Positions 5,100 through 19,305 of a stretch of 37,853 nt of DNA are shown piece by piece (the first letter of the stretch is position 1; every line of letters begins with the position of its first letter). The notes beneath the pieces are model-generated. The model was not told the origin of the DNA. It ran no database searches and saw only the letters and a list, made by a program, of their open reading frames with translations. The DNA is from Chloroflexota bacterium. GTDB taxonomy: Bacteria; Chloroflexota; Anaerolineae; Anaerolineales; UBA11657. The position numbers and the translations under genes were made by a program. Where the stretch lies: NCBI GenBank assembly GCA_003670425.1, contig QWRL01000004.1, positions 1 through 37,853 on the forward strand. Reading direction: 5' to 3'.

Positions 5100-6301
5100 T
5101 GCAGGCGCAAAAAATTGTGGTGATTGGCACCGGCTATGTGGGCCTGCCGGCTGCACTGCTGCTGGCGCGCGCCGGCCACTCGGTGGTGGGCGTAGACATC
5201 AACGACAACATTGTGCGCGCCATCAATGATGGTGTGCTGCATATCAATGAAGCTGCGCTGCAAGCCATTATGGATGAGCCGGCGGTGCGCGCCAACCTGA
5301 CGGCGCAGGCCACGCCCTGCGCAGCCGATGTTTTTTTCATTGCGGTGCCCAGCCCGCTGGACCAGCGCAAGAAGGTGGCGGACCTGAGCATGGTTGTGGC
5401 AGCCGTTGAAGGTTTGGTGCCGTATCTGCGCGCGGGCAATCTGGTGGTGCTCGAGTCCACCGTGCCGCCGCTCACTTGCCGCGAGCTGCTCACGCCCATT
5501 CTTGAGCGCTCTGGCCTGAAAGTCGGCGAGAACCTTTTTCTGGCGCATTGCCCGGAGCGCATTCTGCCCGGTGATGTGTTTTATGAAATTGTGCACAACG
5601 ACCGCATCATCGGTGCGCGCGATGCGCATTCCCGCAAGCTGGCTGCTGCGGTGTACAGCAGCTTTGTAAAGGGCGAGCTGCTTGAGACCGACGATGTGAC
5701 CGCCGAGCTGTGCAAGTTGATGGAGAACACCTATCGCGATGTGAATATTGCGCTGGCCAACGAGCTGGCTGCAGTTGCGGACACGCTGGGCATCGATGCG
5801 CGCGCTGCCATCGCGCTTTCCAACCGCCATCCGCGCGTGAACCTGATGGGGCCCGGCATTGGCGTGGGCGGGCATTGCATTCCCATTGACCCGTGGTTCA
5901 TCAAGGAAGTTGACCCGGCAAACTCGCGCCTCATCTTTGCGGCGCGCATGGTGAACGACGAGATGCCGCAGCGCGTGGCGGCGCGCGTGCGCCAGTCCGT
6001 GCGCGGTGTGCTGGATCCGCGCATCGTTGCGATTGGCGCAGCTTACAAACCAAATACCGAGGACACGCGCGAGAGCCCGGCCGTGCAGGTGGTGGAACTG
6101 CTGCGCGCCGATGGATACGAAGTGGCGCATTTTGACCCGCTGGTGAAGGGCATGGCCTACCCGGGTACGCTGGCAGCGGCCTGTGCCGGTGCGGATTGCC
6201 TTGTATTGCTGGTGGAGCACACGGTAGTGATGGCAGAGCTGGCAGCCCAGCGCCCGGAAATTGACCGCAATATGCGCACCGCGCAGGTCTTGCGCTTTTA
6301 A
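5096..6301 (+). CDS. Nucleotide-sugar dehydrogenase, WecC-like (UDP-N-acetylhexosamine 6-dehydrogenase)
   Basis: GTGYVG, ESTVPP, PERILPG, KLMENTYRDVNIA, GGHCIPIDPWF (catalytic Cys) and DTRESP motifs. Confidence 0.9.
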   Translation: MMQAQKIVVIGTGYVGLPAALLLARAGHSVVGVDINDNIVRAINDGVLHINEAALQAIMDEPAVRANLTAQATPCAADVFFIAVPSPLDQRKKVADLSMVVAAVEGLVPYLRAGNLVVLESTVPPLTCRELLTPILERSGLKVGENLFLAHCPERILPGDVFYEIVHNDRIIGARDAHSRKLAAAVYSSFVKGELLETDDVTAELCKLMENTYRDVNIALANELAAVADTLGIDARAAIALSNRHPRVNLMGPGIGVGGHCIPIDPWFIKEVDPANSRLIFAARMVNDEMPQRVAARVRQSVRGVLDPRIVAIGAAYKPNTEDTRESPAVQVVELLRADGYEVAHFDPLVKGMAYPGTLAAACAGADCLVLLVEHTVVMAELAAQRPEIDRNMRTAQVLRF

Positions 6302-6318
6302 TGCGGCTGGGTTATTAT
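6290..6318 (+). promoter_or_regulatory. Putative sigma70 promoter for the aro leader and operon
   Basis: TTGCGC (6290-6295), 17-nt spacer, TATTAT (6313-6318). Confidence 0.5.
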
Positions 6319-6326
6319 TTGAGCGT

Positions 6327-6398
6327 ATGAACGCAATGTATTTTGGAGGCTACTACTACTTCGGTGCCGCGCTTGCGGCCACCGTCGCTTCGCAGTAA
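6327..6398 (+). CDS. Putative Tyr/Phe attenuator leader peptide MNAMYFGGYYYFGAALAATVASQ
   Basis: 23-codon ORF with 4 Tyr and 2 Phe within codons 5-12, directly upstream of a terminator and the aromatic biosynthesis operon. Confidence 0.8.
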   Translation: MNAMYFGGYYYFGAALAATVASQ

Positions 6399-6428
6399 GT
6401 AGACTCGAGCCTTTTCGGATGAGTTCAC

Positions 6429-6461
6429 AAGCGCGGAGCAACCCTCCGCGCTTTTTGTTTT
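6429..6461 (+). terminator. Intrinsic terminator (attenuator) upstream of aroH
   Basis: Perfect 10-bp stem AAGCGCGGAG / CTCCGCGCTT with a 5-nt loop, followed by TTTGTTTT. Confidence 0.85.
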
Positions 6462-6476
6462 GAAGGAGGGGGCGAT

Positions 6477-6854
6477 ATGGCAATGATTTGTCGCGGGGTG
6501 CGCGGCGCAATCACGGTTGAGCAAAATGCGGCTGAGGATATCCTCAGCGGCACGCGAGAGCTGCTGCAGGCGCTGATTGCTGCGAATGGCATTCTGGTGG
6601 AGGATGTGGCCTCTGTGTTTCTAAGCGCGTCACCGGATCTGACAGCCGAGTTTCCGGCGCTGGCAGTGCGCGAGCTGGGCTGGCTGGAGACCGCTGTGCT
6701 GTGCACGCACGAGATGCAAGTGCCGCACGGCTTGGAGCGCTGTGTGCGCGTGCTGCTGCATTGGAACACAGAGCGGGCGCTGGGCGAGATCGAACACGTC
6801 TACCTGAAGGGTGCGGTGAAGCTGCGGCCGGACCGCGCACCCAAGGGCAAGTGA
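6477..6854 (+). CDS. aroH: Chorismate mutase, AroH class
   Basis: RGVRGAITV, FPALAVR, CVRVLLHWN and YLKGAVKLRPD motifs; SD GAAGGAGG. Confidence 0.93.
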   Translation: MAMICRGVRGAITVEQNAAEDILSGTRELLQALIAANGILVEDVASVFLSASPDLTAEFPALAVRELGWLETAVLCTHEMQVPHGLERCVRVLLHWNTERALGEIEHVYLKGAVKLRPDRAPKGK

Positions 6855-6931
6855 GCAGTTCGCAGGTTGATTGCCGGTGGATCTGCCGGCAGCTGATTAA
6901 TGATGCGCAGGCATCCAAGGAGTGATGTGAA

Positions 6932-7942
6932 ATGGTGATCGTAATGCAAGCGGGTGCCACAGCCGCACAGATAGCCGCCGTTGTAGCGCGGGTGGAGCAG
7001 GACGGGTTGAAGACGCAGGTTGTGCGCGGCACCGAGCGCAACATTGTGTGTGCGCTGGGTGATGACCGCCTGGTGGACAAGCGCGCTTACGCGGTGCTTG
7101 ACGGCGTGGAGACTGCAACGCCTATCCTAAAGCCGTTCAAGCTTGCATCGCGCGAGGCGCAGCCGGCGGACAGCACCGTGCACCTCAAAACGCTGCGCGT
7201 TGGCGGCCCGACGATTGCGATTGTTGCCGGCCCGTGCTCGGTGGAGAGCCGCACGCAGATGCTGGAAATTGCCCACGCAGTCAAAGAGGCTGGTGCGCAT
7301 GCATTGCGCGGCGGCGCCTTCAAGCCGCGCAGCTCGCCGTACAGCTTTCAGGGCATGGGCGAGGAGGGGCTGGTCATTCTTGCGGAAGCCGGTGCGGCGA
7401 CCGGCCTGCCGGTGGTGACTGAAGTTATGTCTGCGGAGCAGTTGGTGCTTGTGCAAAAGTATGCGGATGTGCTGCAGATCGGCGCGCGCAACATGCAGAA
7501 CTATGAGCTGCTGCGCGCCGTGGGTGCCGTCAAGCTGCCCGTGCTGCTCAAGCGTGGACTGATGTCCACCATTGAAGAGCTGCTGATGAGCGCCGAGTAC
7601 ATCCTTTCATCCGGCAATCCGCATGTGATCTTGTGCGAGCGCGGTATTCGCACTTTTGAGAAATACACCCGCAACACCACCGACATCAACGCCATCCCCG
7701 TGTTGAAACATATGACGCACCTGCCGGTGATGCTTGACCCCAGCCACGGCGTGGGGCAGTGGGAGTATGTGCCAGCCGTGGCGCGTGCGGCTGTGGCTGC
7801 GGGTGCCGACGGCCTGCTGGTTGAAGTGCACAATCATCCTGATCAGGCGCTTTCAGATGGCGCACAAAGCTTGAAGCCCGAGGTGTTTGCGGCATTGGTG
7901 AAGGAGTGCCGCGCTGTGGCTGGCATTATCGGCCGCAATTAA
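6932..7942 (+). CDS. aroF: DAHP synthase type I-beta with N-terminal ACT domain, copy 1
   Basis: [45 protein letters not shown] and DPSH motifs; SD AAGGAG. Confidence 0.93.
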
Positions 7943-7963
7943 TTTGTACAAATTGGAGTCGCA

Positions 7964-8974
7964 ATGATCATCGTAATGCGCGCGGGTGCCTCCCGCGAAG
8001 AAATTGACAATGTGGTGGTGCGTGTGGAGCGTGACGGCTTCAAGGCGCATCTGAGTGCGGGTGCAGAGCGCACCATCATCGGCCTGATTGGAGATGACCG
8101 CCCGCTCGACAAGCAGCTATATGAAGTGCTGCCCGGCGTTGAGAAGGCCATGGCGGTGCTCAAGCCGTTCAAGCTGGCTTCGCGCGAGTTTTCCGCTGCA
8201 GATACTTTGGTGACCGTCAAGGGCGTGAGCATTGGCGGCACGCAAGTGGTGCTGATGGCCGGCCCGTGTGCGGTGGAAAGCCGCGGCCAGCTGCTGGAGA
8301 CGGCGCATGCCGTCAAAGCCGCGGGTGCACAAATGCTGCGCGGCGGCGCATTCAAGCCGCGCAGCTCGCCGTACAGCTTTCAGGGGCTGGGCGAGGATGC
8401 GCTGAAGATTTTGGCGGAGGCGCGCGAGCAGACAGGCCTGCCCGTGATCACAGAAATCATGACGCCCGAGCATCTGCCCATGGTTTGCGACTACGTGGAC
8501 ATGCTGCAAATTGGCGCGCGCAATATGCAAAACTACGAGCTGCTCAAGGGCGTTGGCCGCACCACGCTGCCGGTGCTGCTGAAGCGCGGGCTGATGGCCA
8601 CCATGGAGGAACTGCTGATGAGTGCGGAGTACATCCTTGCCGCCGGCAACCGGCAGGTGGTGTTATGCGAGCGCGGCATCCGCACCTTTGAAAAATATAC
8701 TCGTAACACGACGGATATCAATGCCATCCCGGTGCTCAAGCACCTGACGCATTTGCCGGTGATGCTTGACCCCAGCCACGGGGTTGGCGCTACGCGGTAC
8801 GTGCTGCCCGTGGCGCGCGCGGGCATTGCTGCGGGTGCGGACGGGCTGCTGGTGGAAGTGCACTGCAATCCGGAAGAAGCCCTCTCGGACGGCGGCCAGA
8901 GTCTGCGGCCGGATCAATATTCCGAGCTGGTGCGCCAGGTGCGCGTCATTGCGCGCGCTGTCGAACGCAGTTAA
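7964..8974 (+). CDS. aroF: DAHP synthase type I-beta with N-terminal ACT domain, copy 2
   Basis: Same motifs and same length (336 aa) as copy 1; SD GGAG. Confidence 0.93.
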
Positions 8975-9004: not shown

Positions 9005-9889
9005 GTGAATTCAATGCTGGCACTGCACAATGCGCGCATCACCATTGCGGGGCTGGGCTTGATGGGGGGCTCGCTGGCACTGGCGCTGCGCGGCAAGTGT
9101 GCGCATGTGACCGGTGTGGATGTGGATGCCGCAGCGCGCAGTGCAGCGCTGGCGGGGCAAGTGGTGCCGGCGGTGGAGAGTGACTTGCGCGCTGGCATTG
9201 TGGATGCAGATGTGCTGGTACTGGCCACGCCGGTGGGAGTGATCCTGCAGCAATTGCAAGAACTCAAGGCGCACACCGCCGCGCCGCACGCAGCGCTGGT
9301 TGTGCTGGATCTGGGGTCCACCAAGACGGAAATTATTGCGGCGATGGAAGCGCTGCCCGCAGCGTGCGACCCGGTGGGCGGGCATCCGATGTGTGGCAAA
9401 GAAGTGGCCGGCTTGGAGCACGCGGATGCGGCGCTCTATCACGGCGCAACTTTTGTGCTTGCGCCGCTGGCGCGCACCAGCCCGGCCGCATTGCAGCTGG
9501 CGCATGCGGTGGTGGCGGCAGTTGGCGCGCACGCGCTGCTGCTGGACGCTGCGCGCCACGACCAGCTGGCGGCGGCAACCAGCCATGTGCCTTACTTGAT
9601 TGCGTGCGCATTGATGTCTGCGGCAAGCGCGGCAGCCGTAGATGATGACGCGCTATGGCAGCTTGCGGCCTCGGGTTTCCGCGACACATCGCGCCTTGCT
9701 GCCACTTCAGTAAAAATGATGCTGGACATTCTGCGCACCAACCGGGCGCCAGTGCGGGCGGCGCTCAAGGCGCAGCGCAGCCAGATTGACCGGCTGGCCG
9801 GGCTGCTGGAAGGCGATGAGGCTGCCTTGGCGCAGTTTTTGCAGAGCGTGCGCAGCGAGCGCATGCTGCGTTTCCCGCCCGCCGGCTAA
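9005..9889 (+). CDS. tyrA: Prephenate/cyclohexadienyl dehydrogenase (TyrA), no C-terminal ACT domain
   Basis: GLGLMGGS, DLGSTK, GGHPMCG, SHVPY and SGFRDTSR motifs. The start may be ATG 9014. Confidence 0.88.
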   Translation: MNSMLALHNARITIAGLGLMGGSLALALRGKCAHVTGVDVDAAARSAALAGQVVPAVESDLRAGIVDADVLVLATPVGVILQQLQELKAHTAAPHAALVVLDLGSTKTEIIAAMEALPAACDPVGGHPMCGKEVAGLEHADAALYHGATFVLAPLARTSPAALQLAHAVVAAVGAHALLLDAARHDQLAAATSHVPYLIACALMSAASAAAVDDDALWQLAASGFRDTSRLAATSVKMMLDILRTNRAPVRAALKAQRSQIDRLAGLLEGDEAALAQFLQSVRSERMLRFPPAG

Positions 9890-9933: not shown

Positions 9934-11217
9934 ATGAAAATTCACGGACGCGCTGCCAATCTGTGCGGCCCGGTTGCGCTGGCCGGTGATAAATCCATGT
10001 CGCACCGCGCTTTGCTGCACGCAGCCCTCAGCCCCGCCCGCAGCACGCTGCGCAATGTGCTGCGGGCCGGTGTCACCGAAGCCATGATTGGCTGCTTGCA
10101 GCGCCTTGGCGTGCACATTGAGCAAGCCGGCGCCGAACTGCATGTGCAGGGCGGGGCGTGGCGGCCGGTGCCGGACGCGCTGCATTGCGGCAACTCCGGA
10201 ACGACGCTGCGCTTGCTGCTTGGCGCGATTGCCAGCCAGCCGCTGCGCGCCACACTCGACGGCACCGCCGGCTTGCAGCGCCGCCCCATGCAGCGCCTCG
10301 CCGATCCATTGCGCCTGATGGGCGCACAAATTGACAACAACTTTGCGCCGCTGACGGTGAGCGGCGGCGGGCTGCACGGCATCGAATACGCAATTCCGGT
10401 TGCTTCCGCACAAGTAAAAGCCGCGCTGTTGCTTGCTGCCTTGCACGCCAGCGGCCCCACTACCTTGCACGAGCCCGGCCCCTCGCGGGATCACTCGGAG
10501 CGCATGCTGCGCGCACTTGGTGTGGATGTGCGCTCGGATGAAAATGTTGTCACGCTGCATCCGCTTTCTGCGGCGCTGCCCGCCGCGCACCTCACGCTGC
10601 CGGGCGACATGTCGGCAGCTGCCTTCATGCTGGCGATTGCCGTGCTCGTGCCCGGCTCTGTCATTCAGCTGCAGGGCGTGGGCGTCAACCCCACGCGCAC
10701 CGGCTTCCTTGAAGCGCTGCAAGAAATGGGCGCAGACATTCGCATCACAAACCAGCGCGATGAAGGCGGCGAGCCAGTGGCGGACTTGGAGGCGCGCCAC
10801 AGTGCATTGCGTGCCATTGAGATTGGCGGCGCGCGCGTTGTGCGCATGATTGATGAGTTCCCGATCTTTGCGGTGCTGGCTGCGCAAGCGGCCGGGCGCA
10901 CCGTAGTGCGGGATGCCGCCGAGCTGCGCCTGAAAGAATCCGACCGCATTACAGTGCTGGCGGGTGAGCTGCGCAAGCTGGGTGTGGTGCTCACCGAGCA
11001 TGCCGACGGTTTTGAGTTGCATGGACCGCAGGCCATTCGGCCGGCGCTGGTCGCCAGCCATGGGGACCACCGCCTTGCCATGTCGCTGGCGATTGCGGGT
11101 TTGCTGGCGCCTGGCACAACGACGGTTGCTGGTGCCGATGCCGTTGACGAATCGTTTCCGGGTTTTGGCGCAGTGCTGCAGCAGCTGGGCGCAGCAGTCG
11201 AAGTTGACGGCACCTGA
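9934..11217 (+). CDS. aroA: EPSP synthase
   Basis: GDKSMSHR, GNSGTT, SAQVK, RDHSERML, IDEFP, LRLKESDR and GDHRLAM motifs. Confidence 0.95.
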   Translation: MKIHGRAANLCGPVALAGDKSMSHRALLHAALSPARSTLRNVLRAGVTEAMIGCLQRLGVHIEQAGAELHVQGGAWRPVPDALHCGNSGTTLRLLLGAIASQPLRATLDGTAGLQRRPMQRLADPLRLMGAQIDNNFAPLTVSGGGLHGIEYAIPVASAQVKAALLLAALHASGPTTLHEPGPSRDHSERMLRALGVDVRSDENVVTLHPLSAALPAAHLTLPGDMSAAAFMLAIAVLVPGSVIQLQGVGVNPTRTGFLEALQEMGADIRITNQRDEGGEPVADLEARHSALRAIEIGGARVVRMIDEFPIFAVLAAQAAGRTVVRDAAELRLKESDRITVLAGELRKLGVVLTEHADGFELHGPQAIRPALVASHGDHRLAMSLAIAGLLAPGTTTVAGADAVDESFPGFGAVLQQLGAAVEVDGT

Positions 11218-11230
11218 TAATTTCTGAGCC

Positions 11231-12106
11231 ATGTCTGCCACCTCGCAAGCACAAGCCGGTGCGGCGCCCACGATTGTGATCCTTGGGCATCCGGTGCATC
11301 ACAGTGTCTCGCCGGCGATGCAGGGCGCAGCTTTTGCAGCGTTGGGCTTGCCGCACCGCGTGGTGGCGGTGGATGTGCCACCAGCTGAATTGCCGGCGGC
11401 GATTGCGCGCTTTCGCAGCGGCGAGTGGGCTGGCGGCAATGTCACCATTCCGCACAAGCGCGCGGTGCTGGCGTTGCTCGATGAAGTGACGGACACCGCA
11501 GCGCTGCTGGGCGCCGCAAACACCATCATCAACCGCGGCGGGCGCCTGGTGGGTGACAACACCGATGCGGCCGGCTTCACCGCGGATTTGGACCTCCATG
11601 CGGTTGACCCGCGCGGCGCGCCAGTGCTGGTGTTTGGCACTGGTGGCTCGGCGCGCGCGGTGGCGTATGCATTGCTGCAGCGCGGCGCAGCGGAGGTGCG
11701 CCTGCTGGGCCGCAACATTGCACAGGGCGCGCAGCTGGCACGCGAGCTGCATGCCGTCACCGGCGGGCGGCTGATAAATTTTGCATGGACGCCAACTGAT
11801 CTGGGCGATGCATCGCATGGCTGTGTGCTCGCCGTCAACTGCACCCCGCTGGGCCAGACGCCGGATATTTACACCACACCGTGGTTTCAGGTTGTGCCGT
11901 TTGGCGGCAAGCCCTTCATCTACGACCTTGTATATAATCCAGCGCAGACGCTCTTGCTGCGGCAGGCGCTCTCGCACGGCTTGCAATGTGCCACCGGGTT
12001 GGGCATGCTTGTGCAGCAAGGCGCGCTTGCATTCCAGCGTTGGACGGGCAGCGCAGCGCCCGTGGCAATCATGCGCGCCGCAGCGGAAGCCAAACTTTAT
12101 GCTTAG
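11231..12106 (+). CDS. aroE: Shikimate dehydrogenase
   Basis: HSVSP, NVTIPHK, AANT, NTDAAG, GTGGSARA, DLVYNP and GLGMLVQQG motifs. Confidence 0.93.
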   Translation: MSATSQAQAGAAPTIVILGHPVHHSVSPAMQGAAFAALGLPHRVVAVDVPPAELPAAIARFRSGEWAGGNVTIPHKRAVLALLDEVTDTAALLGAANTIINRGGRLVGDNTDAAGFTADLDLHAVDPRGAPVLVFGTGGSARAVAYALLQRGAAEVRLLGRNIAQGAQLARELHAVTGGRLINFAWTPTDLGDASHGCVLAVNCTPLGQTPDIYTTPWFQVVPFGGKPFIYDLVYNPAQTLLLRQALSHGLQCATGLGMLVQQGALAFQRWTGSAAPVAIMRAAAEAKLYA

Positions 12107-13271
12107 ATTTATCACCGCCGGAGAGTCGCACGGGCCAAGCGTGCAGGTCATCATCGAGGGCCTGCCGGCTGGCTTGCCGCTCACAGCTGCAGACATCAAC
12201 CCGGACCTGGCACGCCGCCAGCTGGGCTATGGCACTGGTGCGCGCATGAAGATCGAGCATGATGTTGTGCAAATCCTCGCGGGCGTGATGAACGGCAGTA
12301 CAACCGGTGCACCGATTGCACTCACGGTTGAAAATGTGGACCACGCCAAATGGAAAGATGTGGCCGTCCCGCCGTTGACCACGCCGCGTCCCGGCCACGC
12401 AGACTTGGCCGCCGCCATCAAGTACGGCTATGACGACATGCGCTACAGCCTGGAGCGTGCCTCCGCGCGCGAGACGGCAGCGCGCGTTGCCGCTGCGGCA
12501 GTCTGCCGCAAATTTTTGAAGCAGTTTGGAATTGAGATTGGCAGCTACGTACTTGAGATTGGTGCGGTGGCAGCGAATGTTGCGCACATGCCGGTGGCCG
12601 AACGCTGCCGGCTGGCAGAGGCGTCTGATGTGCGCTGCCCGGATGCAGGCGCTGCCGAACTGATGCGCGTGCACATCCGCGACATGATGCTGGCCAAGGA
12701 CACGCTGGGCGGAATCTTTGAAGTGGCAGCCGTAGGCGTGCCGCCCGGCCTTGGCTCGCATGTGCAATGGGATCGCAAGCTGGATGGCCGGCTGGCGCAA
12801 GCCATGCTCAGCATCCATGCCGTCAAAGGCGCAGAGGTTGGACCCGCATTTGACAACGCGCGCCTGCCTGGCACGCAAGTGCATGATGAGTTGTTCCGCG
12901 AAGGCGAGCGCATTGTGCGGCGCACCAACCGCGCCGGTGGCACAGAAGGCGGCATCACCACCGGTGAGGCCTTGCTGGTGCGCGCAGCAATGAAGCCCAT
13001 CAGCACCACCCTCAACCCGCTCATGACCGTGGACCTGGCAACGGGCGTCAGTGGCCCAACAACCTACGAGCGCTCGGATTTTTGCGCGGTGCCGCGCGCA
13101 GCCGTGATTGGTGAAGCGATGGTGGCGCTGGTACTGGCCGAAGCACTGCTCGAAAAGTTGGGTGGCGACTCGCTGGCAGAAATGCGCCCGCGCTTTGCTG
13201 CGTTGCGCACCTCGGCCCTGCCGGACCTGGTGATGGCCAACACGCCCATCAAATTCTGGCCGGCAGAATGA
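12099..13271 (+). CDS. aroC: Chorismate synthase
   Basis: MLRFITAGESHG, RPGHAD, ERASARETA, NRAGGTEGG, KPIST and ERSD motifs. Confidence 0.95.
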   Translation: MLRFITAGESHGPSVQVIIEGLPAGLPLTAADINPDLARRQLGYGTGARMKIEHDVVQILAGVMNGSTTGAPIALTVENVDHAKWKDVAVPPLTTPRPGHADLAAAIKYGYDDMRYSLERASARETAARVAAAAVCRKFLKQFGIEIGSYVLEIGAVAANVAHMPVAERCRLAEASDVRCPDAGAAELMRVHIRDMMLAKDTLGGIFEVAAVGVPPGLGSHVQWDRKLDGRLAQAMLSIHAVKGAEVGPAFDNARLPGTQVHDELFREGERIVRRTNRAGGTEGGITTGEALLVRAAMKPISTTLNPLMTVDLATGVSGPTTYERSDFCAVPRAAVIGEAMVALVLAEALLEKLGGDSLAEMRPRFAALRTSALPDLVMANTPIKFWPAE

Positions 13272-16308: not shown

Positions 16309-19305
16309 ATGTCATCCAGCCTGACTTTTCAAGAAGTGGTGATGGCGCTGGACCGCTTCTGGGCGCAGCGCGGCTGCCTCATTTGGCAGCCGTACAACCA
16401 TCAGGTGGGTGCCGGCACAATGAACCCGGCCACGGCGCTGCGCGTGCTGGGCCCCGAGCCGTGGAACGTGGCGTATGTGGAGCCATCCATCCGGCCCGAT
16501 GACGGGCGCTATGGCGAGAATCCCAACCGGCTGCAGCAGCACTTTCAATATCAAGTGATCCTTAAGCCGGATCCCGGCAATCCGCAAGAGCTGTATCTGG
16601 AGTCATTGCAAGCGCTGGGGTTGAACCTGGCCGCGCATGATGTGCGCTTTGTGGAGGACAACTGGGAGTCGCCGGCGCTGGGAGCGTGGGGCCTGGGCTG
16701 GGAGGTGTGGCTGGACGGGCAGGAGATCACGCAGTTCACTTACTTTCAGCAGGCCGGCGGGCTGGTGCTTGATCCGGTTGCAGTTGAGATTACTTACGGC
16801 TTGGAGCGCATTCTGATTGCGCTGCAGCGCGTGCGTGGTTTTCGCGAGATACGCTGGAATGCCGCCCTGAGCTATGCGGATGTAAACCTGCAATCCGAAC
16901 AGGAGTACAGCAAGTACTACTTTGAAGTGGCGGATGTTGAGCGCATGCGCGCACAGTTTGATTCTTATGAAAGCGAAGCCAAGGCGGTGCTGGCAGCCGG
17001 GCTGGTACTGCCGGCCTATGACAATGTGCTGCGCTGCTCGCATGCGTTCAATGTGCTGGATACGCGCGGCGCGGTGGGCGTCACCGAGCGCGCGCAGTTT
17101 TTTAAGCGCATGCGCAACCTGACGCGGCAGGTAGCGGAAGCGTGGCGCGCGCAGCGCGCAGAGCTGGGCCACCCGTTGCTGGTGGATGGCTCCGAGCCGG
17201 CAGCCCGGCCGGCCGCGCAGCTGCCGCTCGCAAAAGCGCCGGCCACCTTTTTGCTTGAGATTGGCACGGAGGAGCTGCCCGCTGCAGATGTGGACAGCGC
17301 GATCGCGCAGCTGCAATTGCTGCTGCCGCAACTGTTGCTGGCGGAACGGCTGGCGCATGGTGCGATTGTTGTGAACGGAACGCCGCGCCGCCTGGCGGTG
17401 AGCATTGCTGGGTTGCCGGCGCTGCAGCCGGATGCGGAGACGGTGGCGCGCGGGCCGGCGGTGAGCAATGCGTTTGATGCTGCGGGGCAGCCCACGCCGG
17501 CGGCGCAGGGTTTTGCGCGCGGCAAGGGCGTGGCGGTGGGTGCGCTGCAGCGGCGCAGCATGGACGGCGGCGAGTACGTGGTGGCGCTGGTGCGCGCCAC
17601 AGGCCAGCCGCTGGCTGTGGTGCTGGCAGAACTGGCGCCGCGCATCCTTGCAGCGCTTGAGTTTAAGAAGAGCATGCGCTGGCGGCCGGGGCGCACTGCG
17701 CCGGCGTTTTCCCGGCCGGTGCGCTGGCTTGCGGCAATGATTGATGCGCAGGCGCTGCCCTTTGAGTGGGGCGGCTTGCAAGCGGGCAGCACTTCGCGTG
17801 CGCTGCGCTCTGATGCGGCGCCGGGCGGTGAAGTGATTGAGATTGGCGCGGCCGACAGTTACAGCCAGAGCATGCGGGCGCACGGAATTATTCTTGAACA
17901 TGAAGCGCGCGCCCGCACAATCATGGAGCAGGCGCAGCAGCTGGCTGCAAAGGTGGACGGCACGATTGCGGCGGATGCCGGGCTGCTGGCCGAGGTTGCC
18001 AATCTGGTGGAGTGCCCGACCGCATTTTTGGGTTCGTTCGAGGAAGCGTATCTGGAGCTGCCGCAAGAAGTGCTGGTGTCTGTGATGAAGAAACATCAGC
18101 GCTACTTTCCGGTTTGGCGGGCGGGCCGGTTGCTGCCGTTTTTTGTGGGTGTGCGCAACGGAGATGCCACAAACCTGGCGCAGGTGGTGGAGGGCAACGA
18201 GCATGTGATTCGGGCGCGCTTTGCGGATGCCAGTTATTTTGTGCGCGATGATTTGCGCCACGACCTTGCCGGCTTTCGCAGCCGGCTTGCGCGGCTCACG
18301 TTTCATGAGCAGCTGGGCTCGATGCTGGACAAGAGCGCGCGCGTGGAAACAATTGTTGAGCGGCTGGCGCCGCTGCTGCAGCTCGTTAGTGAGCTGCCGG
18401 TTGCGCTGCGGGCTGCCCATCTTTGCAAGGCAGACCTGGCCAGCCGCATGGTGGTGGAGATGACGGCGCTGCAGGGCGTGATGGGGCGCGCGTACGCGTT
18501 GCGCGCGGGCGAGCCGCCCGCGGTGGCGCAGGCGATTGAGCAGCACTACTGGCCGCAGGCAGCTGGTGACCCACTGCCCGAATCAGCTGCGGCTGCAGCT
18601 GTGGCACTTGCAGACCGGCTGGATACGCTGTGCGGATTGTTTGCGCTCGGCCTGGTGCCCACCGGTTCGGCGGACCCGTTTGGCTTGCGGCGCGCTGCGC
18701 TGGGCGTGGTGCAGATTCTGCTGGGGCGCACGCAGGCACTGGATCTGCGCAGCGCGCTGACGGTTTGCGCCGCATGCCAGCCGCTGGCGGTTGGCGCTGC
18801 GGCGCAGCAGGACGCGCTGGCTTTCATTGCCGGCCGGTTGCGCGGCGTGCTGCTGGAAGCGGGCCACCGCCATGATGTGGTGGAGGCCGTGCTGGCAGCA
18901 AAGGCGCATGATCCTTACGCTGCGCAACAAGCGGCGGCACAGCTTTCTGCATGGCTGGTGCGCGCCGAGTGGGCGCCACTGCTGGAGGCGTTTGCGCGTT
19001 GTGCACGCATGACGCGAGAACTGGACGGCACAACGCCGGTGCTGCCGGCTGCGCTGCAGCACGCAGCCGAGCAGGATCTGTGGCGCGGCTTGCAGGCTGC
19101 GGAGGCCGCGTGTGCGCAGCACAGCAGCGTGGACGGGCTGCTGCGCGCGTTGCAGCCGCTGGCGCCATTGGTGGTGAAGTTTTTTGAGGATGTGCTCGTG
19201 ATGGATGAAGATGCGGCGGTTCGCAGCAACCGGCTGGGATTGCTGCAGCGTGTGGCAGCATTGGGCACCGGCATTGCAGATCTATCAAAGCTGGAGGGTT
19301 TTTAG
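16309..19305 (+). CDS. glyQS: Glycyl-tRNA synthetase, fused alpha-beta chain
   Basis: Alpha motifs ([39 protein letters not shown]) followed in frame by beta motifs ([38 protein letters not shown]). Confidence 0.95.

Follow-up and report, generated by a model that had tools for sequence, protein, structure and literature searches.

A candidate tyrosine- and phenylalanine-responsive leader-peptide attenuator upstream of the aroH operon in Chloroflexota

How the genes for aromatic amino acid synthesis are controlled in a mostly uncultured phylum is the question raised by the 37,853-nucleotide stretch of DNA analyzed here as a whole (the window). A sequence-only reading had proposed that a short upstream open reading frame (uORF) rich in Tyr and Phe codons, together with a terminator and an alternative pairing, forms a ribosome-mediated attenuator controlling a seven-gene aro/tyr operon in a probable Chloroflexota genome. 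The assignment to Chloroflexota is correct, and the proposed attenuator is supported by a conserved uORF, a covarying terminator and synteny. A classical ribosome-mediated transcription attenuator sensing charged tRNA-Tyr and tRNA-Phe is the favored interpretation, with a probability of about 85%. All features of the locus described below lie on the forward (+) strand and carry window coordinates.

The uORF occupies positions 6327 to 6398 (23 codons plus TAA), with an ATG at 6327, a TAA at 6396 to 6398, and the predicted peptide MNAMYFGGYYYFGAALAATVASQ. Codons 5 to 12 (6339 to 6362) are the putative control codons and read Tyr-Phe-Gly-Gly-Tyr-Tyr-Tyr-Phe (YFGGYYYF); six of these eight are Tyr or Phe and none is Trp, exactly as the sequence-only reading had described. 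The first ATG (6327) corresponds to the conserved uORF start, because relatives of the same genus do not have the second ATG. A Shine-Dalgarno-like motif was looked for upstream of this ATG and none was found. Between the uORF stop and the aroH start there are 78 nt. Among ATG-started leaders, peptide length ranges from 20 to 42 residues, and the feature kept in the leader peptide across 76 distinct leaders is the aromatic run. The region around the stop codon has a peculiarity of its own: by a by-eye count, 11 of 25 aligned leaders carry TAAGTAG or TGAGTAG at this position (6396 to 6402; alignment columns 70 to 76), and the GTAG places a TAG in the +1 frame directly 3' of the stop. This GTAG may contribute to the lower part of the antiterminator helix, or may catch ribosomes that have slipped on the aromatic run.

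Downstream of the leader, Pfam assignments agree with the claimed operon aroH-aroF-aroF-tyrA-aroA-aroE-aroC. The first gene encodes a type I chorismate mutase (aroH, 6477 to 6854; CM_1, E = 1.2e-42) and is preceded by the Shine-Dalgarno sequence AAGGAGG (6463 to 6469). It is followed by two DAHP synthase genes (aroF, 6932 to 7942 and 7964 to 8974; DAHP_synth_1 and DAHP_snth_FXD in each), prephenate dehydrogenase (tyrA, 9005 to 9889; PDH_N/PDH_C), EPSP synthase (aroA, 9934 to 11217; EPSP_synthase), shikimate dehydrogenase (aroE, 11231 to 12106; Shikimate_dh_N) and chorismate synthase (aroC, 12099 to 13271; Chorismate_synt). The seven genes are closely packed, and according to Pfam their products make chorismate, prephenate and Tyr. 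Genomic neighborhood comparison reveals that a DAHP synthase follows aroH in 30/30 relatives, while the upstream sugar gene of the window is adjacent in 3/30. The tandem DAHP synthase paralogues (6932 to 8974) each carry an N-terminal ferredoxin-like domain and may represent isoenzymes with different feedback inhibitors. A prephenate dehydratase was not found in the organism's own genome (75% complete). In three relatives (genomes G025, G008 and G002; loci L111, L112 and L113, respectively), the prephenate dehydratase gene is located directly 3' of a gene that by eye resembles leuB (isopropylmalate dehydrogenase), and no aromatic uORF precedes it at any of the three loci. Phe synthesis thus seems to lie outside the operon of the aro leader.

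The sequence-only reading had named the alignment of aroH-upstream regions in related genomes as the decisive comparison, and this comparison bears it out. All 30 relatives of the same order encode a small ORF with a Phe/Tyr run 70 to 260 nt upstream of aroH. In 29 of them the best eight-codon window holds at least five aromatic residues, and the 30th, with four of eight, is plainly homologous. A wider set of 80 named aroH loci was drawn from a scan of one genome per species, with phyla assigned from the organism names in the records; the Candidatus Multivorans locus was looked up and belongs to Acidobacteriota. The 49 loci labeled Chloroflexota cover Anaerolineae, Chloroflexia including Roseiflexus, Ardenticatenia, Thermoflexales and others, and the remaining 31 comprise Planctomycetota (14), Acidobacteriota (10), Desulfobacterota (3), Gemmatimonadaceae (1), Verrucomicrobia (1) and two unlabeled loci. 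An aromatic window of at least 5/8 is found upstream of aroH in 48 of the 49 Chloroflexota-labeled loci (41 with an ATG start, 7 with GTG or TTG), including one doubtful case whose uORF is 258 nt upstream of aroH (L046); the single locus lacking an aromatic uORF is L095. None of the 31 other loci contains such a window, the best in any frame reaching at most 4.

Composition of the run departs from the earlier description in one respect. The best windows of the 76 distinct leaders contain 229 Tyr, 219 Phe and 26 Trp residues, so that the claimed dominance of Tyr does not extend across the family. Since Tyr and Phe are about equally frequent, the family is best read as a Tyr-plus-Phe sensor, with the Tyr bias peculiar to the window's genus. 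The leader appears to be new as a family member, and it spans the Chloroflexota lineages sampled.

Within the organism's own genome (2.08 Mb, 75% complete; six frames), 23 of 23,548 ATG-started ORFs of 10 to 45 residues reach five aromatic residues in eight. Only three reach six in eight, two of which are nested forms of the leader uORF, and the leader uORF is the sole small ORF that combines at least five aromatic residues in eight with a perfect terminator within 70 nt. The remaining ORFs that reach five in eight are embedded in longer ORFs. Other small ORFs with aromatic or single-residue runs in this genome (C79, C95, C120, C98, C35, C46, C129 and C68) were set aside, since each forms an internal or terminal part of a longer ORF. 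A covariance model of the leader returns one full match in the own genome (91.3 bits), and elsewhere in the phylum 13 of 14 full-length matches have aroH just downstream. The phylum scan matched 15 of 151 genomes, a figure that comes from a one-order model with stricter filters and is therefore no gauge of distribution. A second model match in L091 (3043 to 3170, minus strand) corresponds to the 3' end of a longer ORF and its terminator, and was rejected as a leader.

Structurally, the best-defined element is the intrinsic terminator (6429 to 6461), located where the sequence-only reading had placed a 10-bp hairpin with a U-tract, just before the aroH Shine-Dalgarno sequence. Its stem (6429 to 6438 with 6444 to 6453) consists of ten perfect pairs, seven of them G-C, closed by a 5-nt loop (6439 to 6443) and followed by the U-tract TTTTTGTTTT up to 6461; it begins 30 bases past the uORF stop. 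The fold has an energy of −16.9 kcal/mol (z = −5.87), equaled by 0/200 shuffles. Of the 76 distinct leaders, 72 have a terminator-like hairpin and T-run downstream of the uORF. In the alignment of 25 Anaerolineales leaders, 91.6% of cells in the terminator columns pair, compared with 37 to 57% when the columns are slid, and compensatory changes occur at 8 of 11 pairs; a covarying stem, which the sequence-only reading had suggested looking for in relatives, is thus present. On a 75-row alignment, itself fitted to a terminator-only model, 96.1% of cells pair. Covariation of the terminator is strong.

The conserved antiterminator arises when the uORF 3' end (6384 to 6393) base-pairs with terminator positions 6433 to 6442 in the 5' arm and loop. 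In the window, its 5' strand comprises the last uORF codons up to the stop (6384 to 6396) and pairs with 6431 to 6442: GT (6384 and 6385) with AC (6441 and 6442), GCTTCGC (6387 to 6393) with GCGGAGC (6433 to 6439), and GT (6395 and 6396) with 6431 and 6432. A small internal hairpin (6402 to 6425), seen in folds of the window only, is located inside this helix. RNA spanning 6363 to 6443 adopts the antiterminator fold at −35.3 kcal/mol (z = −3.08), with 1/200 shuffles as good. In most relatives the strongest partner of the terminator 5' arm and loop is likewise the last 13 to 18 nt of the uORF, extending into the stop codon.

Among the 25 Anaerolineales leaders, 73.8% of cells in the antiterminator columns pair (28 to 48% when slid), two-sided changes are seen at 10 of 14 pairs, and a covariation score of 0.233, against 0.181 after shuffling, is reached in 1/500 shuffles. 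On the 75 rows, an alignment fitted to the terminator-only model, 65.6% of cells pair (39 to 50% when slid) and every one of the 14 pairs has changed on either strand; both alignments mix registers. Duplex energies point in the same direction: the segment following the aromatic run pairs with the terminator arm and loop of its own leader at −15.85 kcal/mol versus −13.33 kcal/mol with those of other leaders, a value as low in 0/10,000 permutations, and 42 of 45 leaders fall below expectation. Kin leaders are non-independent, so the conservation and duplex figures somewhat overstate the support. Covariation support for the antiterminator is moderate, below that of the terminator.

Directly 3' of the control codons, a local hairpin (P1, 6363 to 6383) folds at −12.2 kcal/mol (z = −2.32; 5/200 shuffles as good), in agreement with the hairpin that had been noted there. 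A hairpin recurs at this place in folds of relatives. Its covariation is weak and not clean, with 50% of cells pairing against 40.6% in shuffles, yet 57% when the columns are slid by +3. The protector role assigned to P1 does not hold for the conserved antiterminator in the window: there the hairpin does not overlap the antiterminator strand, and the two form together in naked RNA without competition. In some relatives, inspection of the folds indicates that the 3' half of P1 appears to overlap the antiterminator strand by 2 to 5 nt.

These elements can be assembled into a switch for which we infer from the sequence the regulatory outcome, uORF translation, stalling, transcription start and footprint geometry. 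A ribosome covers about 12 to 15 nt beyond its A-site codon. When Tyr and Phe are plentiful, the ribosome would pass YFGGYYYF and reach the stop at 6396, where it would cover 6384 to 6396, the antiterminator 5' strand, and leave it unable to pair. With that strand masked, the terminator (6429 to 6453) and its U-tract would form, and transcription would stop before aroH. Poor charging of tRNA-Tyr or tRNA-Phe would instead make the ribosome stall on codons 5 to 12 (6339 to 6362), with its front edge at most at about 6375. The free 6384 to 6396 strand could then pair with 6431 to 6442, that is, with most of the terminator 5' arm and loop, before the 3' arm is made, and the polymerase would continue into aroH-aroF-aroF-tyrA-aroA-aroE-aroC. 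The spacing on which this geometry depends is similar among relatives: the distance from the end of the last aromatic codon to the uORF stop is 33 nt in the window and 24 to 42 nt in Anaerolineales (mostly 33 to 36 nt). For most Anaerolineales, the antiterminator strand maps to −18 to +1 counted from the stop; in the window it makes up the last 13 nt of the uORF.

Fold simulations with ribosome masks constrain how such a switch could operate. At equilibrium, the mean terminator probability is 0.82 with a stalled ribosome and 0.95 with one at the stop. A switch is seen in only 6 of 45 leaders, and the window's own leader is not among them, with a terminator probability of 0.96 in every mask state. 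Equilibrium therefore favors the terminator in most leaders under any ribosome mask; folds of this kind cannot reveal the switch, which would have to be kinetic. When RNA is folded before the 3' arm exists, mean sequestration of the 5' arm is 0.73 with a stalled ribosome, 0.67 with a single ribosome at the stop, and 0.40 with all upstream RNA blocked. The stalled and stop states thus differ weakly, and a clear contrast appears only under the full upstream block. In the window, sequestration with the ribosome at the stop rises to 0.88, because 6367 to 6375 can pair behind the ribosome. In this model such pairing would have the wrong polarity unless hairpin 6363 to 6383 re-forms first. The same folds bear on the untranslated RNA. 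In the textbook trp model, pairing of regions 1 and 2 causes termination when the leader is untranslated. This feature is absent from the window, where the hairpin and the antiterminator coexist; since naked window RNA forms both together, the untranslated leader is predicted to read through. Region 1:2 pairing is a trait of the trp model that not every attenuator needs to have.

How translation of the uORF would begin is suggested by the sequence upstream. A promoter-like site, TTGCGC-N17-TATTAT (6290 to 6318), scored 8/12 in the window, under the scanner cut-off of 9/12, and its putative −10 element ends 8 nt 5' of the uORF ATG. A promoter-like site scoring at least 9/12 and ending 5 to 13 nt before an in-frame ATG is found in 23 of 29 Anaerolineales leaders and in 36 of 67 ATG-started leaders overall, the rate at 5,177 control ATGs from these loci being 0.95%. 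Because the putative −10 ends only a few nucleotides before the ATG in most relatives, the uORF is probably leaderless or nearly so. Transcription would then probably start 1 to 3 nt before the ATG at 6327, and the leaderless leader mRNA would be translated while emerging from the polymerase. Leaderless cysteine-rich short ORFs are known from mycobacteria, where they act as attenuators, largely on downstream translation; they share the leaderless leader peptide with the present uORF and differ in the amino acid sensed and in phylum. The uORF start of pheL and pheM, by comparison, is Shine-Dalgarno-led.

Two observations concern the same interval. A hairpin of 6 bp followed by TTTT (6281 to 6295) overlaps the end of the upstream dehydrogenase gene, and its 3' arm contains the putative −35 hexamer of the leader promoter. 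The stretch is also contained in 14 RNA runs, and contigs assembled from four of them span 5900 to 6972; as assembled contigs bridging the region, these sequences give no transcript starts or ends and are neutral on termination. In the contigs of the four libraries, differences from the window are concentrated between the putative −10 element and the ATG (6316, 6321, 6322 and 6324), with no difference listed from 6325 to 6529, over the entire leader.

The closest alternative leaves the uORF and terminator as they are and concerns the pairing partners. The sequence-only reading had proposed 6367 to 6375 as the antiterminator strand, and the complementarity it described is real: CCGCGCTTG (6367 to 6375) is the exact reverse complement of CAAGCGCGG (6428 to 6436). 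This 9-bp match gives the strongest duplex found for the window's leader (L001, −16.9 kcal/mol), and the hairpin at 6363 to 6383 that would protect it is stable. The pairing is, however, not conserved beyond the genus, with 42.9% of cells pairing against a shuffle mean of 42.4%, a level reached by 211/500 shuffles. Of the three leaders of the genus, L002 and L003 retain only eight of the nine pairs, a position in the hairpin loop having changed in each. The geometry also runs against it, as a ribosome stalled on codons 10 to 12 would cover 6367 to 6375, given the usual footprint, while a ribosome at the stop would leave this strand exposed, which is the wrong polarity. That this pairing is the working antiterminator in the window's genus, with P1 as protector, is therefore improbable, and the uORF 3' end is the preferred partner.

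Other explanations dispense with attenuation altogether and fare worse still. The terminator hairpin lies 128 nt past the stop of a UDP-glucose/GDP-mannose dehydrogenase-family gene, and could in principle merely terminate the upstream sugar-nucleotide cluster next to a chance ORF, the outcome that the sequence-only reading had itself named as contrary to its proposal. That gene, however, has its own small hairpin and T-run (6281 to 6295), a promoter-like site separates it from the uORF, and such a uORF arises by chance in about 1 in 1,000 small ORFs. Synteny contradicts it further: the sugar gene accompanies the leader in the 3/30 relatives given above, whereas uORF, terminator and aroH occur together in 30/30. 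This explanation is hardly credible. It is only slightly easier to suppose that the leader RNA is read by a tRNA (as in a T-box), a metabolite or a protein, with the aromatic codons incidental, or that the uORF acts only on aroH translation. The relevant passages of PMC1262725 describe T-box control of such genes in Firmicutes, and those of PMC4833913 propose that leader genes boost translation through reinitiation. Against this very improbable pair of mechanisms stand an in-frame aromatic codon run whose in-frame start and stop are kept while the nucleotides drift, and the 78 nt to the aroH start, which with a terminator in between leave little room for reinitiation. Moreover, the Rfam search suggested by the sequence-only reading yields no known leader: no Rfam 15 family (Phe, Trp, His, Leu and Thr leaders and the T-box included) matches 5800 to 7000 with E values up to 10 considered, except that the best hit, MicC (E = 1.2), is a chance match to the terminator. 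Conservation of the uORF over a phylum might finally indicate a functional small protein. The kept part is the Phe/Tyr run only, in peptides of 20 to 42 residues whose remainder varies with its RNA pairing partner, and a protein function is accordingly most unlikely. The attenuator sensing charged tRNA-Tyr and tRNA-Phe remains the preferred reading.

Among described systems, the nearest functional counterpart is the aroR leader (Phe-Tyr-Phe) of Corynebacterium glutamicum, which precedes the aroF (DAHP synthase) operon (Neshat et al. 2014, as presented in PMC11802643). According to the account in PMC11802643, ribosome stalling on aroR enhances readthrough, and the system responds to Phe and not to Tyr. 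In both systems, a leader containing Phe as well as Tyr codons precedes a DAHP synthase operon. The Chloroflexota leader differs in that its run has 5 to 8 aromatic residues with Tyr about as frequent as Phe, and in that its operon starts with aroH and includes tyrA; aroR belongs to Actinobacteria, and has a shorter aromatic run and a Phe response. The resemblance considered here is functional only. The pheL-pheA and pheM-pheST attenuators of Escherichia coli and other gamma-proteobacteria, as outlined in the pertinent sections of PMC11802643 and PMC3082878, share a short uORF with an aromatic codon run, a terminator and an alternative pairing, but are limited to Phe codons, with pheA or the Phe-tRNA synthetase under their control. 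The trpL/hisL logic, as summarized in part of PMC9413887, is that a ribosome at the leader end yields the terminator and a ribosome stalled on the control codons yields the antiterminator. The window leader would share this logic; it differs in its untranslated state, as the trp leader terminates and the window leader is predicted to read through.

Chloroflexota have figured little in such surveys. Chloroflexota are missing from the tyrA-linked attenuators in the relevant portion of a 2005 survey, a 2013 regulon study covers, in its pertinent sections, five Chloroflexi genomes with Rfam families only (PMC3766115), and a 2016 study, in the passage concerned, left Chloroflexi aside for lack of genomes (PMC4833913). 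In the full-text articles searched, no description of an aromatic leader in Chloroflexota was found; the supplements of PMC4833913 and PMC3766115 might list such leaders.

A second leader of similar appearance is found in the same organism. On another contig of its genome (C142, 13565 to 13682; equivalent to L131, 266 to 383), a short ORF with His-His-His and then a terminator lie just upstream of a gene that we take, from its N-terminal sequence, to be hisG. Among 29 loci from this set of relatives (L133 to L161; two of the rows represent one place), 27 have a His-rich uORF (three to seven His in seven residues) preceding the putative hisG. The Rfam His leader does not match this His-rich leader, the best match being Leu_leader (E = 0.17). 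The His-rich uORF before hisG has the appearance of another leader-peptide attenuator family within the order, so the group would use attenuation logic elsewhere too.

Taken together, the aro Tyr/Phe leader and the His leader before hisG in the same order could belong to a phylum-wide, uncatalogued family of leaderless leader-peptide attenuators in Chloroflexota, in which untranslated RNA defaults to readthrough and termination needs a ribosome that has finished the peptide and sits on the antiterminator strand at the stop. We advance this generalization tentatively, as a proposition with slightly less than an even chance of being right. For the locus itself, the leader provides a concrete, testable candidate element for the control of aromatic amino acid synthesis in a large, mostly uncultured phylum, and the data suggest that leaderless translation and attenuation are combined in Chloroflexota. 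In the bacterium of the window, the aromatic pathway would most likely be switched on only when Tyr and Phe run short. The approximately 76 distinct leaders are material for an RNA family with which to annotate metagenome-assembled genomes, and flagging aroH-led operons as putatively Tyr/Phe-responsive would aid in reading metatranscriptomes.

Two further features were noted in passing. Within the window, a single 998-residue ORF (16309 to 19305) encodes a fused glycyl-tRNA synthetase that has the domains of both its alpha and its beta subunit. Elsewhere in the same genome (contig C45, 2659 to 2838), a region upstream of an S-adenosylmethionine synthetase-like gene resembles, by eye, a SAM riboswitch followed by a terminator.
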